A program made the translations under genes and the position numbers. This document shows, piece by piece, positions 22,552 through 26,980 of a stretch of 35,232 nt of DNA. Source of the DNA: a virus (lineage: Duplodnaviria; Heunggongvirae; Uroviricota; Caudoviricetes); IMG/VR virus record IMGVR_UViG_2541047821_000009; one strand, 5' to 3'. Positions within the stretch are counted from its first letter, which is position 1. Each line of letters starts with the position of its first letter. The notes below the pieces were generated by a model. It saw only the letters and a program-made list of their open reading frames with translations, was not told the origin of the DNA and did no database searches.

Positions 22552-25305
22552 ATGAGCACGAAATTTAAAACCGTTATCACTACTGCCGGAGCCGCGAAGC
22601 TGGCAGCCGCCACTGTTCCCGGCGGGAAAAAAGTAAACCTGTCTGCAATGGCCGTGGGTGACGGTAATGGCAAATTGCCGGTGCCGGATGCCGGTCAGAC
22701 GAAACTGGTGCATGAGGTCTGGCGTCATGCCCTGAATAAAGTCAGCGTGGATAACAAGAATAAAAACTATATCGTGGCTGAACTGGTTGTACCGCCCGAA
22801 GTGGGCGGCTTCTGGATGCGTGAGCTTGGTCTGTATGACGATGCCGGAACACTGATTGCGGTATCCAACATGGCAGAAAGCTATAAGCCAGAACTGGCTG
22901 AAGGCTCCGGACGTGCGCAGACCTGCCGCATGGTTATTATTCTCAGCAACGTGGCGTCCGTTGAGCTGAGTATTGATGCCAGCACAGTGATGGCGACGCA
23001 GGATTACGTCGATGACAAAATCGCAGAGCATGAGCAGTCCCGCCGCCATCCTGACGCCACGCTGACAGAAAAAGGTTTTACTCAGTTAAGCAGTGCAACA
23101 AACAGCACCAGTGAAAAGCTGGCGGCAACGCCAAAAGCGGTCAAGGCAGCAAATGACAACGCAAATTCACGTCTGGCGAAAAATCAGAACGGTGCAGATA
23201 TCCAGGATAAATCAGCTTTTCTGGACAATATTGGTGTTACCAGCCTGACGTTTATGAAAAACAACGGCGAAATGCCGGTTGATGCTGATCTGAATACGTT
23301 TGGTCCTGTTAAAGCTTATTCAGGTATCTGGTCTAAAGCAACATCCACCAACGCAACACTGGAGAAAAACTTCCCTGAAGATAATGCTGTCGGTGTGCTT
23401 GAGGTTTTTACTGGCGGCAATTTTGCAGGCACGCAACGCTATACCACACGTGACGGAAATTTGTATATCCGCAAACTCATTGGAACATGGAATGGTAATG
23501 ATGGACCATGGGGAACATGGCGCCATGTTCAGGCTGTAACGCGGGCTCTAAGTAAGACCATTGACCTTAACTCTCTCGGTGGCGCAGAACATTTAGGTCT
23601 ATGGAGAAACAGCAGTTCAGCAATAGCTTCTTTTGAACGACATTACCCCGAGCAGGGAGGAGACGCGCAGGGCATTCTGGAAATTTTCGAAGGTGGGCTA
23701 TATGGACGCACACAGCGTTATACAACCCGTAACGGGACTATGTATATTCGCGGCCTGACAGCCAAATGGGATGCAGAAAATCCACAGTGGGAAGACTGGA
23801 TCCAAATTGGTTATCAGACCAGTAGTACCTTCTATGAGGATGACCTGGATGATTTGATGTCTCCGGGTATTTACAGTGTGACAGGCAAAGCGACCCACGC
23901 CCCAATCCAGGGGCAGTCTGGTTTTCTGGAAGTCATCAGGCGCAAGGATGGTGTCTATGTTTTGCAACGTTACACGACCACAGGAACCAGCGCAGCTACA
24001 AAAGACCGTTTATATGAGCGAGTGTTTCTTGGTGGCTCATTTAACGCGTGGGGGGAGTGGCGACAGATTTATAACTCAAACTCTTTGCCGTTAGAGTTGG
24101 GTATCGGTGGCGCAGTGGCAAAACTCACCAGCCTGGACTGGCAGACATACGATTTTGTGCCGGGCAGTCTGATAACCGTTCGGCTGGATAACATGACCAA
24201 TATTCCCGACGGTATGGACTGGGGCGTCATTGATGGCAACCTGATAAACATCTCAGTCGGTCCGAGTGATGATTCTGGTTCGGGACGCTCAATGCATGTA
24301 TGGCGCAGCACTGTAAGTAAAGCCAACTACCGCTTTTTTATGGTGCGTATTTCAGGAAATCCGGGAAGCCGCACGATTACAGCAAGACGAGTACCAATCA
24401 TTGACGAAGCCCAGACATGGGGCGCGAAACAGACATTCAGTGCTGGCCTTTCTGGTGAACTGTCCGGCAATGCGGCGACAGCAACAAAGCTGAAAACAGC
24501 CCGTAAAATTAATAACGTTTCGTTTGATGGAACATCAGATATTAACCTGACGCCGAAAAATATTGGTGCATTTGCTTCAGGAAAAACAGGAGACACCGTT
24601 GCGAATGATAAAGCCGTTGGGTGGAACTGGAGTAGCGGAGCCTATAACGCAACTACTGGTGGGGCATCAACGTTAATTCTTCATTTTAATATCGGTGAAG
24701 GAAGTTGTCCCGCCGCCCAGTTCCGCGTTAATTATAAGAACGGCGGTATTTTTTATCGTTCTGCTCGTGACGGTTACGGATTCGAGGCTGACTGGTCTGA
24801 GTTTTATACCACAACGCGAAAACCTACAGCGGGAGATGTCGGTGCACTGCCGTTATCTGGTGGTCAATTGAATGGTGCTCTGGGTATAGGAACATCCAGT
24901 GCTCTTGGCGGTAATTCGATTGTTTTGGGTGATAATGACACGGGCTTTAAACAAAATGGTGATGGTAATCTGGATGTTTATGCTAATAGCGTCCATGTTA
25001 TGCGCTTTGTCTCGGGAAGTATTCAAAGTAATAAAACCATAAATATTACGGGGCGTGTTAATCCCTCGGATTACGGTAACTTTGATTCCCGCTATGTCCG
25101 GGATATCCGGCTTGGTGGTGCTGCCACATACAAACCTGCGAACAATGGCATGACATGGACACATCAGGCACCGTCCGGGTGTGTATATTCCGGCATTATT
25201 GTTCAGGATACCGGCTCAAACTCTGCCGATAACATTGGTGGTGTATATTACAGACCGGTTCAGAAATACATTAACGGGACATGGTATAACGTGGCGCAGG
25301 TATAA
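22552..25305 (+). CDS. H: Tail fibre protein (gpH) with expanded variable C-terminal region
   Basis: 917 aa, longer than P2 H (about 669 aa); three tandem ~45-aa repeats of a 'TQRYTTR(D/N)G..YIR...W...W' motif in the middle; Gly-rich distal region. Confidence 0.85.
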   Translation: MSTKFKTVITTAGAAKLAAATVPGGKKVNLSAMAVGDGNGKLPVPDAGQTKLVHEVWRHALNKVSVDNKNKNYIVAELVVPPEVGGFWMRELGLYDDAGTLIAVSNMAESYKPELAEGSGRAQTCRMVIILSNVASVELSIDASTVMATQDYVDDKIAEHEQSRRHPDATLTEKGFTQLSSATNSTSEKLAATPKAVKAANDNANSRLAKNQNGADIQDKSAFLDNIGVTSLTFMKNNGEMPVDADLNTFGPVKAYSGIWSKATSTNATLEKNFPEDNAVGVLEVFTGGNFAGTQRYTTRDGNLYIRKLIGTWNGNDGPWGTWRHVQAVTRALSKTIDLNSLGGAEHLGLWRNSSSAIASFERHYPEQGGDAQGILEIFEGGLYGRTQRYTTRNGTMYIRGLTAKWDAENPQWEDWIQIGYQTSSTFYEDDLDDLMSPGIYSVTGKATHAPIQGQSGFLEVIRRKDGVYVLQRYTTTGTSAATKDRLYERVFLGGSFNAWGEWRQIYNSNSLPLELGIGGAVAKLTSLDWQTYDFVPGSLITVRLDNMTNIPDGMDWGVIDGNLINISVGPSDDSGSGRSMHVWRSTVSKANYRFFMVRISGNPGSRTITARRVPIIDEAQTWGAKQTFSAGLSGELSGNAATATKLKTARKINNVSFDGTSDINLTPKNIGAFASGKTGDTVANDKAVGWNWSSGAYNATTGGASTLILHFNIGEGSCPAAQFRVNYKNGGIFYRSARDGYGFEADWSEFYTTTRKPTAGDVGALPLSGGQLNGALGIGTSSALGGNSIVLGDNDTGFKQNGDGNLDVYANSVHVMRFVSGSIQSNKTINITGRVNPSDYGNFDSRYVRDIRLGGAATYKPANNGMTWTHQAPSGCVYSGIIVQDTGSNSADNIGGVYYRPVQKYINGTWYNVAQV

Positions 25306-25308
25306 TTT

Positions 25309-25836
25309 ATGCAGCATTTAAAAAATATTACGGCGGGTAATCCAAAAACGGTTGAACAATATCAATTGACAAAAGACTTTGATGTTGTCTGGTTTTTTTC
25401 AGAAGATGGTAAGAACTGGTACGAAGAACAAAAGTATTTTGCTGATGACACGCTAAAAATAGCGTACGACAAAGATAATATCATCCGCTATGTGGAAAAG
25501 GATGTGACAGCTATCAGACCGGATGGATTAAGTGTTGTTGAAGTGGCGGATATTACTGCTAACCGACGGGCGGACATTTCAGGGAACTGGATGTTTAAGG
25601 ACGGCAAAGTGATTAAACGCATTTATACGGCAGAGGAATTGCTGCAGCAGGCAGAAAACCGGAAAGCCAGACTTCTTGCAGATGCTGAATCCGTGATTTT
25701 GCCGCTGGAGCGCGCGGTCAGACTGAACATGGCAACAGATGAGGAGCGTAGCCGACTGGATGCATGGGAGCGTTACAGCGTTCTGGTCAGTCGTGTGGAT
25801 CCTGCAAATCCTGAATGGCCGGAAATGCCGCAATAA
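25309..25836 (+). CDS. G: Tail fibre assembly chaperone (gpG)
   Basis: 175 aa as in P2 G; immediately after H. Confidence 0.75.
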
Positions 25837-26057
25837 GTTGTATGATCTCTGGAGTGAGCAAACATATCTATGGCACAGAGTAAAGCCTAATCTGACAGGC
25901 CGCTCTGTGTCTGGAGTAGATTTTAGTAAAGCATTATTTTATTAGTGCAAATTCTAATCAATACATTTTATGTATATGATATCCTGCAGACTTTAATGAC
26001 TTGGTTTAGGCTAACCAGATAACACTGAAGGAATATTTTTGATAATTAAGGTGCGGT

Positions 26058-26651
26058 ATGTTTACTAAGCGACGATTAAAAAATATTAACTGGGAGGCAA
26101 GTTCAGTGATTCTTGCTATGGTTCTCTTTGTTGGAAATATATTTTATACAAATCATCGTGATGATATAACTATGGAGGCTGAGAGGGACAGTATCAGAAC
26201 AATGTTTGCATATGAAATCGCTAATAACCATCGCGCTCTCACTTTTCTTGATAAAACGAGATATATTGGCTTTGACGAAAATTCGGAGCATTTTGTTGGC
26301 GAGCCTTTTGCCATTAATGTCAAATCATTAGGGGGGCCTCGCTTACAGATTGCATTAAACCAGACTGATAAAGTGTTTAAATCCTACTTCAGCGAATTAA
26401 GTAAGCTTGATAAAGAGGATGTTACTCTTCTTATGGACTATTACCATGAGCAAAGCATCCTGCTGGAGCGTGTAAAATCTACGTTACAGAAGATGAAAAG
26501 TGGTAATGATATTAAAGTTGATATTGATGGTTACTTATTAGAAGAACACTTCATGAATGAGCTTAATCTTTCTAATATTTTGCTTAAACGCTATAGCCAT
26601 TTGTTGTCACAACACGCCAAAGAACATAAAACAAAAGATTTACATAATTGA
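26058..26651 (+). CDS. Membrane-anchored hypothetical protein at the Z/fun-equivalent locus
   Basis: 197 aa; AAGGTG ribosome-binding site; N-terminal transmembrane helix 'SSVILAMVLFVGNIFY'; strongly AT-rich; no recognisable domain. Confidence 0.6.
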   Translation: MFTKRRLKNINWEASSVILAMVLFVGNIFYTNHRDDITMEAERDSIRTMFAYEIANNHRALTFLDKTRYIGFDENSEHFVGEPFAINVKSLGGPRLQIALNQTDKVFKSYFSELSKLDKEDVTLLMDYYHEQSILLERVKSTLQKMKSGNDIKVDIDGYLLEEHFMNELNLSNILLKRYSHLLSQHAKEHKTKDLHN

Positions 26652-26857
26652 TAATCTGCTAATGGTTATTCATGGGGTAACTATGTTTTATATGTAATCC
26701 AACTCAGATGAATTATTGATTCTGGATAATAACCGCAGAGCGGTATATACCATGACAGGCAAATGTCCGCTTCTTGTTCAAAGCAGACCGTCAGATTTGA
26801 TAACTTTTGGGCTATGTAAATTGTCAGTCGGAAAATGAGTGAGTTCAAATCAGGACA

Positions 26858-26884
26858 GGCGGGCGAATTGCCCGCCTTTTCTTT
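26858..26884 (+). terminator. Intrinsic terminator upstream of FI
   Basis: Hairpin GGCGGGC-gaatt-GCCCGCC followed by TTTTCTTTAT. Confidence 0.55.
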
Positions 26885-26980
26885 ATCTGTTGTTTCATCC
26901 ACTGACCAGCCAGGTCAAATAGCGTCTCATGCTCTGCACAACAGAAAATAGTTGCACCCATTAACCACGGAGTTAAACGG

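Follow-up and report, generated by a model that had tools for sequence, protein, structure and literature searches.

The window, as the whole stretch of DNA analysed here is called (35,232 nucleotides; IMG/VR virus record IMGVR_UViG_2541047821_000009, Caudoviricetes), carries the tail fibre gene H of a P2-like prophage. Its product, gpH, belongs to an already catalogued long type of P2-family fibre, which was first described in phage L-413C. Behind a P2-like N-terminus gpH has three tandem units that are predicted to have the fold of the pyocin knob, and it ends in a tip which co-varies with the N-terminal half of the chaperone encoded by the next gene, G. Both the fibre type and the knob domain were previously known, and the interpretation given in the original prediction, a note made earlier from the letters of this DNA, is essentially the one published for the L-413C type. 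What is added here is a module map in which the knob cassette and the tip assort independently.

Gene H and the map of its product

Gene H is found in the order V-W-J-I-H-G, followed by a cargo open reading frame (ORF) of low guanine-plus-cytosine (GC) content and then by FI, which agrees with the gene order in P2, in L-413C and in the RefSeq annotation of an identical locus. This is the late-operon position of a P2-family gpH, with a gene for a Tfa-type chaperone directly behind H and FI thereafter. The identical protein (100%) is in RefSeq as WP_016236077.1 under the name "phage tail-collar fiber domain-containing protein", the Escherichia coli sequence NZ_OZ547117.1 carries the gene at 100% nucleotide identity, and, among 5,426 complete genomes of E. 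coli, 157 hold at least 80% of the gene. Full-length, collinear homologues at 78–93% identity occur in 30 deposited phage records, which include several ICTV Peduovirus species and Yersinia phage L-413C. The modules of gpH and their coordinates are given in Table 1.

Table 1. Gene H, the modules of its product (knob fold as predicted) and gene G in the window. aa, amino acids; HMM, hidden Markov model of the repeat unit; pLDDT, predicted local distance difference test score.
Feature	Positions	Strand	Residues	Characteristics
gpH tail fibre gene, L-413C-type long form	22552..25305	+	917 aa	phrog_381 (tail fiber), E 4.6e-205
P2-like N-terminal baseplate-attachment part	22552..23172	+	aa 1–207	83.6% identity to P2 H aa 1–207
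Linker and beginning of the non-P2 block	23173..23280	+	aa 208–243	P2 alignment stops at aa 207; GC 0.435
Knob domain A	23281..23535	+	aa 244–328	HMM 107.7 bits; 45–95% identity among alleles
Knob domain B	23557..23814	+	aa 336–421	HMM 93.7 bits; 40% identity to A; 67–100% among alleles
Knob domain C, most diverged	23836..24075	+	aa 429–508	HMM 26.8 bits, E 2.4e-10; 44–99% among alleles
Beta-rich domain D	24076..24471	+	aa 509–640	Five predicted strands, pLDDT ~55–70; 73–98% identity among alleles
Mu S/S'-like, T4 gp37_C-like distal shaft module	24472..24852	+	aa 641–767	99–100% identity among alleles except P24A7b
Gly-rich distal shaft common to P2 H	24853..25101	+	aa 768–850	Aligns to P2 H from aa 472; weak gp37_trimer match; Gly 16.9%, GC 0.42
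Distal tip module, presumed primary receptor-binding end	25102..25302	+	aa 851–917	aa 851–900 swappable, final 17 aa conserved
gpG tail fibre assembly chaperone	25309..25836	+	175 aa	Pfam Caudo_TAP (PF02413), E 2.2e-34; phrog_136; 5' half GC 0.39

The P2 protein (NC_001895; NP_046775.1) has 669 aa, so that gpH of the window is longer by 248 aa, in good agreement with the approximately 250 aa noted in the original prediction. The extra length is not just that of three added repeats. Rather, the middle of the P2 protein (aa 208–471) has been exchanged for a block of 560 aa, and in BLASTP against P2 H no counterpart was found for aa 208–767 of the window protein. Besides the N-terminal part, the likeness to P2 is confined to aa 768–917 (39% identity), to G (74%) and to the genomic position. 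The P2 fibre has no knob, an unrelated middle and a tip of another class, and the C-terminal part of the window protein is 48 aa shorter than that of P2.

In Pfam the N-terminal part is covered by Phage_tail_fib (PF12571; aa 1–151, E 3.2e-57) and by a Phage_fiber_2 repeat (PF03406; aa 170–211, E 1.1e-20); PF12571 together with the high identity to P2 H marks the N-terminal tail-collar region of a P2-family gpH. The distal part is of the Mu S/gp37 type. GpH matches the structures of Mu fibre proteins at E 1.5e-69 (PDB 8JU3) and E 3.5e-29 (5YVQ), and the Pfam family gp37_C (PF12604) passes with 23.9 bits at a cut-off of 22.5. The correspondence to Mu S/S' is closest in aa 670–766, which match aa 321–417 of 8JU3 (E 3.8e-48), and a further resemblance exists between aa 167–233 and Mu S aa 110–176. 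For the last ~70 aa, matches were found at the C-terminus of Mu S (5YVQ) and at that of a short tail fibre, from Pectobacterium phage phiTE (9CUY_c, E 2.6e-18); the paper on 9CUY held nothing useful on the homologous tip.

Mu S/S', like gpH, is accompanied by a Tfa-type chaperone (U/U'). In contrast to gpH, Mu S is without the knob triplet, and the window is without the invertible G segment, the invertase and the alternative fibre end of Mu. An invertible fibre segment of the Mu/P1 type (G/C, Gin/Cin) was considered and rejected. The sole inverted repeat, of 21 nucleotides (nt), lies at 25268–25288, in the 3' end of H (coding for INGTWYN), and at 26746–26766, between G and FI; with 16 of 21 matches (76%) it is at chance level, since shuffled sequences gave 15–19. 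No fibre-like remnant lies downstream, and tblastn of the distal part of H against 25837–26980 found nothing.

The base composition changes along the gene. GC is 0.58 in the baseplate genes V–I, 0.53 in the N-terminus of H, 0.44–0.51 in its middle, 0.42–0.49 in aa 768–917 and lowest in the 5' half of G (Table 1). It had been noted that the 3' end of H and G are more AT-rich, which is correct; the GC below that of the backbone extends over all of H past aa 207. A Gly-rich distal region, also noted, does exist but the enrichment is mild, with 14.1% Gly in aa 641–917 versus 10.2% in aa 1–640.

Three tandem repeats and their predicted fold

The original prediction described three tandem copies of a unit of about 45 aa, in ranges which correspond to aa 280–328, 374–419 and 457–505 and have the motif G.LEV…QRYTT…Y.R…W..W in common. 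Because these ranges are spaced by 94 and 83 aa, a longer unit was suspected, and this was borne out. The repeats are contiguous units of 85, 86 and 80 aa with linkers of 7 aa between them, and every unit opens with DLN/DLD, a motif lying some 40 aa upstream of the core seen earlier. The earlier ranges are thus only the conserved C-terminal halves of units that are about 85 aa long.

That there are three repeats is correct. In Smith-Waterman comparisons with shuffled sequences the z values were 28 for A and B, 5.2 for A and C (the score was reached by 0 of 500 shuffles) and 3.1 for B and C (7 of 500). Seventeen columns are invariant in all three units, and the identities of C to A and to B are below that between A and B. 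An HMM for which 174 units of the A/B type were taken from other proteins, the window's own units and C-type units being excluded, finds exactly three domains in H, the best of 500 shuffled H sequences scoring 5.9 bits. Self-BLASTP of H returned the identity match only and is too insensitive for repeats at 34–40% identity or less.

At the DNA level there are no direct repeats between the units apart from one chance pair of 26 nt, from which it follows that the triplication is ancient. This is of importance for the view that the units arose by a recent tandem duplication in situ, or that the modules are a new acquisition of this particular prophage. The units are indeed contiguous and in the same orientation, and their GC is under that of the backbone. 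There is, however, no repeat in the DNA, and the protein identity of A and B is only 40%, with C lower still. Moreover, L-413C, the 30 phage records, the 157 E. coli genomes and one T-even-like phage all have the three-knob arrangement. By these occurrences and by the lack of a DNA repeat the view is already refuted, and we give it practically no credence.

The structure of aa 225–660 was predicted as a monomer from an alignment of 20 sequences. The mean pLDDT of the model is 68, with values of ~75–90 in the three units (knob A ~85–90), 55–70 in domain D and <50 in the final 44 residues. In the model every unit has one short helix, located at the DLN motif, and then five strands, and the order of the strands in C is the same as in A and B. 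The structure prediction that had been proposed as a check of the repeat region thus yielded three beta domains, which are knob-like in structure searches. In Foldseek, an independent method, the 12 matches at E<=1e-3 belong without exception to pyocin fibres (6CL6, 6CL5) or to receptor-binding proteins of phages. Among the matches of the structure searches are 6EU4, 5EFV, 5M9F and T4 gp34, which stand on the published list of proteins with the knob fold (Buth et al., 2018; PMC6116203). The root-mean-square deviations are large, because the monomer model leaves the orientation of the domains relative to each other arbitrary.

The pyocin knobs are defined as units of 83 aa in tandem, with a five- or six-stranded antiparallel sheet and the loops outside (Buth et al., 2018; PMC6116203), and the units of gpH agree with this both in size and in their tandem arrangement with short linkers. 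At the level of the model, and short of proof, the units have the pyocin-knob fold. Relative to the knobs of the R1/R2 pyocins (PDB 6CL5, 6CL6, 6CU2), of which there are two copies versus three in gpH, the structure-based sequence identity is 11–21%. The two kinds of fibre also differ in their ends, the pyocin fibre having a lectin-like foot and that of the window a Mu/P2-type tip with a Tfa chaperone.

A profile of 85 positions, derived from the unit, retrieved 475 representative clusters at E<=1e-3. In the retrieved set the proteins have one (n = 59), two (n = 43), three (n = 35), four (n = 9) or five knobs (n = 3); in P2 H the profile finds none. The top match, P0096 of the representative library (1300 aa), has five to six knobs in two blocks (three in aa 217–482 and two in aa 721–896), which is the highest count seen.

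Knob cassette and tip among related fibres

The closest described relative in architecture is gpH of L-413C (NP_839867.1, 913 aa). The two proteins align in a single high-scoring segment pair (aa 1–917 versus 1–913) at 78% identity, collinear through the middle block that is absent from P2. The original prediction had been staked on two points, namely that the internal repeats are significant and that the extra length does not align collinearly with a standard type of P2-family fibre. The first was upheld, the second was not, since L-413C represents such a type. As in the window, the L-413C protein has three knobs plus D and the Mu-like shaft, with G as the next gene. Identity is 100% in aa 1–235, 30–87% in aa 241–630, 97–100% in aa 631–840 and 17–50% in aa 841–900. 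The differences lie in knobs A and C (44–45% identity, versus 83% for B), in the tip, which is of the P2 type (aa 851–900, 20%), and in the N-half of G (67%). In the account of Garcia et al. (2008) as relayed in PMC7460101, the L-413C fibre is a four-region hybrid, P2-like over 207 aa at the N-terminus and over 137 aa at the C-terminus and mosaic in the middle; as relayed there, the mosaic was put down to recombination and proposed as the determinant of specificity. A fusion of L-413C GpH with a fluorescent reporter attaches to cells of Yersinia pestis and has been used for their detection (PMC7460101). Closer in sequence are the fibres of Escherichia phage 899, PhiR44_1, Peduovirus P24E6b and other deposited Peduovirus phages, which are annotated as tail fibre and are 90–93% identical over the full length.

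In a panel of nine alleles the N-terminus (aa 1–207) is 96–100% identical throughout, and so is aa 641–850 in all alleles except P24A7b. Variation among the alleles is restricted to the knob cassette and the tip. For aa 851–900 of the tip there is no gradation: the alleles are either 100% or ~20% identical. The class of the tip predicts the sequence of G aa 1–95, which is 97–100% identical where the tip is the same and 65–68% where it is different. This co-variation agrees with the published model of Tfa proteins, in which the variable N-domain binds the distal end of the fibre, trimerisation being left to the conserved C-domain (PMC9608196).

The knob cassette and the module formed by tip and G assort independently in this panel. 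For example, phage 899 has knobs of the window type (A/B/C 95/100/99%) with the other class of tip, and PhiR44_1 and P2SIDE7 have the tip and G of the window (97–100%) with diverged knobs (85–86/76/58%). The allele of the window is a phage-899-type knob cassette combined with a tip and G of the PhiR44/P2SIDE7 type. No single phage record has both of these, but some E. coli chromosomes do, e.g., NZ_OZ547117.1. In many E. coli genomes the match covers nt 1–2564 of the gene only, so that one junction lies close to aa 855. Variable positions of the knobs are over-represented outside the strands of the model (odds ratio 0.55 and p=0.02 for the pooled set; p=0.005 for knob A).

The knob cassette is not limited to P2-type fibres. 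The "large distal tail fiber subunit" of the T-even-like Shigella phage JK23 (P0045, 639 aa) has the same three knobs plus D, with 56% identity over the whole 390-aa query; it differs in its gp37-type context, in belonging to a virulent phage and in its other N- and C-terminal parts. P0085 (678 aa), an Atlantibacter "pyocin knob domain-containing S74 family peptidase", has two knobs plus D at 38% identity and a C-terminus which is an S74 intramolecular chaperone. From these two proteins it follows that cassettes of knobs and D have been exchanged between temperate and virulent phage lineages.

Domain D, which stands behind the knobs in both P0045 and P0085, accompanies the cassette in unrelated fibre contexts. 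No relevant family was found for it in Pfam (E<=10) or NCBIfam (E<=1). Its "SLDWQTYDFVPG" start and its five strands hinted at a cryptic fourth knob in aa 509–645. This was rejected at the sequence level, as hhalign against a profile of 202 knob units gave a probability of 0.4%.

The original prediction had proposed receptor-binding modules gained by recombination and relevant to host range. That the gene is a mosaic made by recombination is borne out by the near-identical flanks versus the divergent knobs and tip in the comparison with L-413C, by the independent assortment in the nine alleles and by the presence of the cassette in T-even-like and S74 fibres; the variable modules are also expected to set the host range. 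A gain particular to this prophage is contradicted, in contrast, by the occurrence of the same type in so many phage records and E. coli genomes and by the identical RefSeq protein.

Two further fibres should be mentioned. Peduovirus P24A7b (L010 1501–4703) has a gpH of 874 aa, of which aa 1–671, comprising the N-terminus, the three knobs and D, are common with the window and the distal half is unrelated; its chaperone, of 192 aa, has 24–39% identity to G. Receptor-binding ends of a wholly different kind can thus stand behind the knob block. P0076 (E. coli, 679 aa) is a P2-type gpH in which a single knob A is joined straight to the middle of domain D ("...HTQSATGRSMHVWRST..."), after which come another distal shaft and a tip of the P2 type; in this protein the knob cassette has apparently been contracted.

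Proposed function, and the cargo gene next to G

Taken as a whole, we consider it very probable that gpH is the long homotrimeric fibre, of the L-413C type, of an E. coli Peduovirus prophage, with knobs, with a tip that is served by gpG, and with a history of recombination. The P2-type N-terminus would anchor the fibre on the baseplate. In the trimer the knobs would appear as three globular beads, with the beta-sheets round the three-fold axis and the variable loops directed outward, a geometry which is indirectly supported by the enrichment of allelic variation outside the strands. Beyond the knobs would come domain D, then the shaft resembling Mu S/S' and T4 gp37 (aa 641–850) and finally the small tip. 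GpG would fold and trimerise the distal end, with its variable N-half matched to the tip, and the fibre type would have been built and re-assorted by recombination at conserved junctions.

The tip is most likely the primary receptor-binding element and would be the main determinant of host specificity. P2, L-413C and Mu all use the core of the lipopolysaccharide (LPS) as receptor, and the tip of gpH would probably recognise the LPS core as well. The roles could also be reversed, the knob cassette being the primary receptor determinant and the tip a generic membrane-proximal or chaperone-docking element. The several allelic classes of knobs would fit this, as would the fact that for the spectrum of pyocins Knob2 was judged weightier than the C-terminal lectin domain (Buth et al., 2018; PMC6116203). 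Such a reversal is nevertheless quite unlikely. The tip exists in discrete unrelated forms which are co-inherited with the fibre-binding half of the chaperone, and this is the signature of a receptor-binding module. Its homologue in Mu is the distal end of the fibre protein S, to which the Tfa chaperone binds (PMC9608196). Phages grown on Y. pestis, furthermore, differ in their knobs yet have the same P2-like class of tip (identity of knobs A/B/C to the window 45/83/44% in L-413C and 85/76/59% in YpM_22; tip ~20% in both).

With the tip as the primary receptor-binding element the question is what the knobs are for. They might be purely architectural, serving as folding nuclei or rigid spacers that set the length and register of the fibre without contact to the cell, so that the tip alone sets the host range. 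Indeed, the multi-core structure of knobs was proposed to aid the folding of the trimer (Buth et al., 2018; PMC6116203), the sites of host range in related P2-like coliphages map to the C-terminal region (PMC5285337), and tip and chaperone are already a self-contained swappable pair. In addition, P2 H works with zero knobs, and a variant with one knob exists (P0076). Such a purely architectural role is possible but rather improbable in our opinion. A spacer is not expected to be the most variable part of a protein, and A and C fall to 44–45% between flanks of 99–100%; the variation is biased to positions outside the strands; and in the pyocins the diversity of Knob2 follows the killing spectrum, while a knob-like prism of K1F binds sialic acid (PMC6116203). 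In pyocin fibres the greatest diversity is that of Knob2 and of the C-terminal domain, the parts linked to specificity (Buth et al., 2018; PMC6116203). The hypervariability of the knobs between identical flanks speaks against a role that is structural only; by analogy to Knob2 of the pyocins and to the prism of K1F it favours some contact with the surface. The knobs are probably auxiliary contacts to surface glycans or points of orientation.

A bolder proposal, which we regard as speculative and on balance improbable, is that the three knobs are independent glycan-binding sites and that the fibre reads at least two surface structures at once, the knobs binding O-antigen or outer core and the tip the LPS core. 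If this were true, the free re-assortment of knob cassettes against tip plus chaperone would amount to a combinatorial host-range code for P2-like prophages, the cassette of which would also be traded with virulent T-even-like phages.

It should be noted that several points weigh against the interpretation given here. In Pfam (E<=10) and NCBIfam (E<=1) no relevant match was found on any single unit, so that at the sequence level the assignment to the knobs depends on the names given by NCBI to relatives. Many of these, at 73–80% identity, are called "pyocin knob domain-containing protein", a name which is presumably derived from a CDD model. Domain D has no knob-like profile and is modelled with low confidence, its fold therefore being one for which the interpretation does not account. 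The panel of nine alleles is small and its members are phylogenetically non-independent, and the enrichment of variation in loops is significant only for knob A and the pooled set, with no signal in knob B.

The practical value of these results lies in a module map with exact junctions: the knobs at aa 244–508 (with D, to aa 640) and the tip at aa 851–900, the partner of which is the N-half of G. A map of this kind serves the design of chimeric fibres and the prediction of host range from sequence for P2-like prophages. Map and linkage of tip and chaperone are useful in fibre engineering but unsurprising.

Between G and FI, at the position of the Z/fun cargo hot-spot of P2, lies an ORF of 197 aa (26058–26651, + strand) with a GC of 0.35 versus 0.58 in the backbone. 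In P2 this site contains fun(Z) and in L-413C an unrelated ORF, both on the opposite strand. The ORF of the window has no match in Pfam or PADLOC. Over its full length it matches phrog_3829 (unknown function; E 2.8e-137), it corresponds to the RefSeq hypothetical protein WP_047335206.1, and it has a hydrophobic N-terminal stretch. By its sequence it is a candidate for a lysogenic-conversion or exclusion gene.

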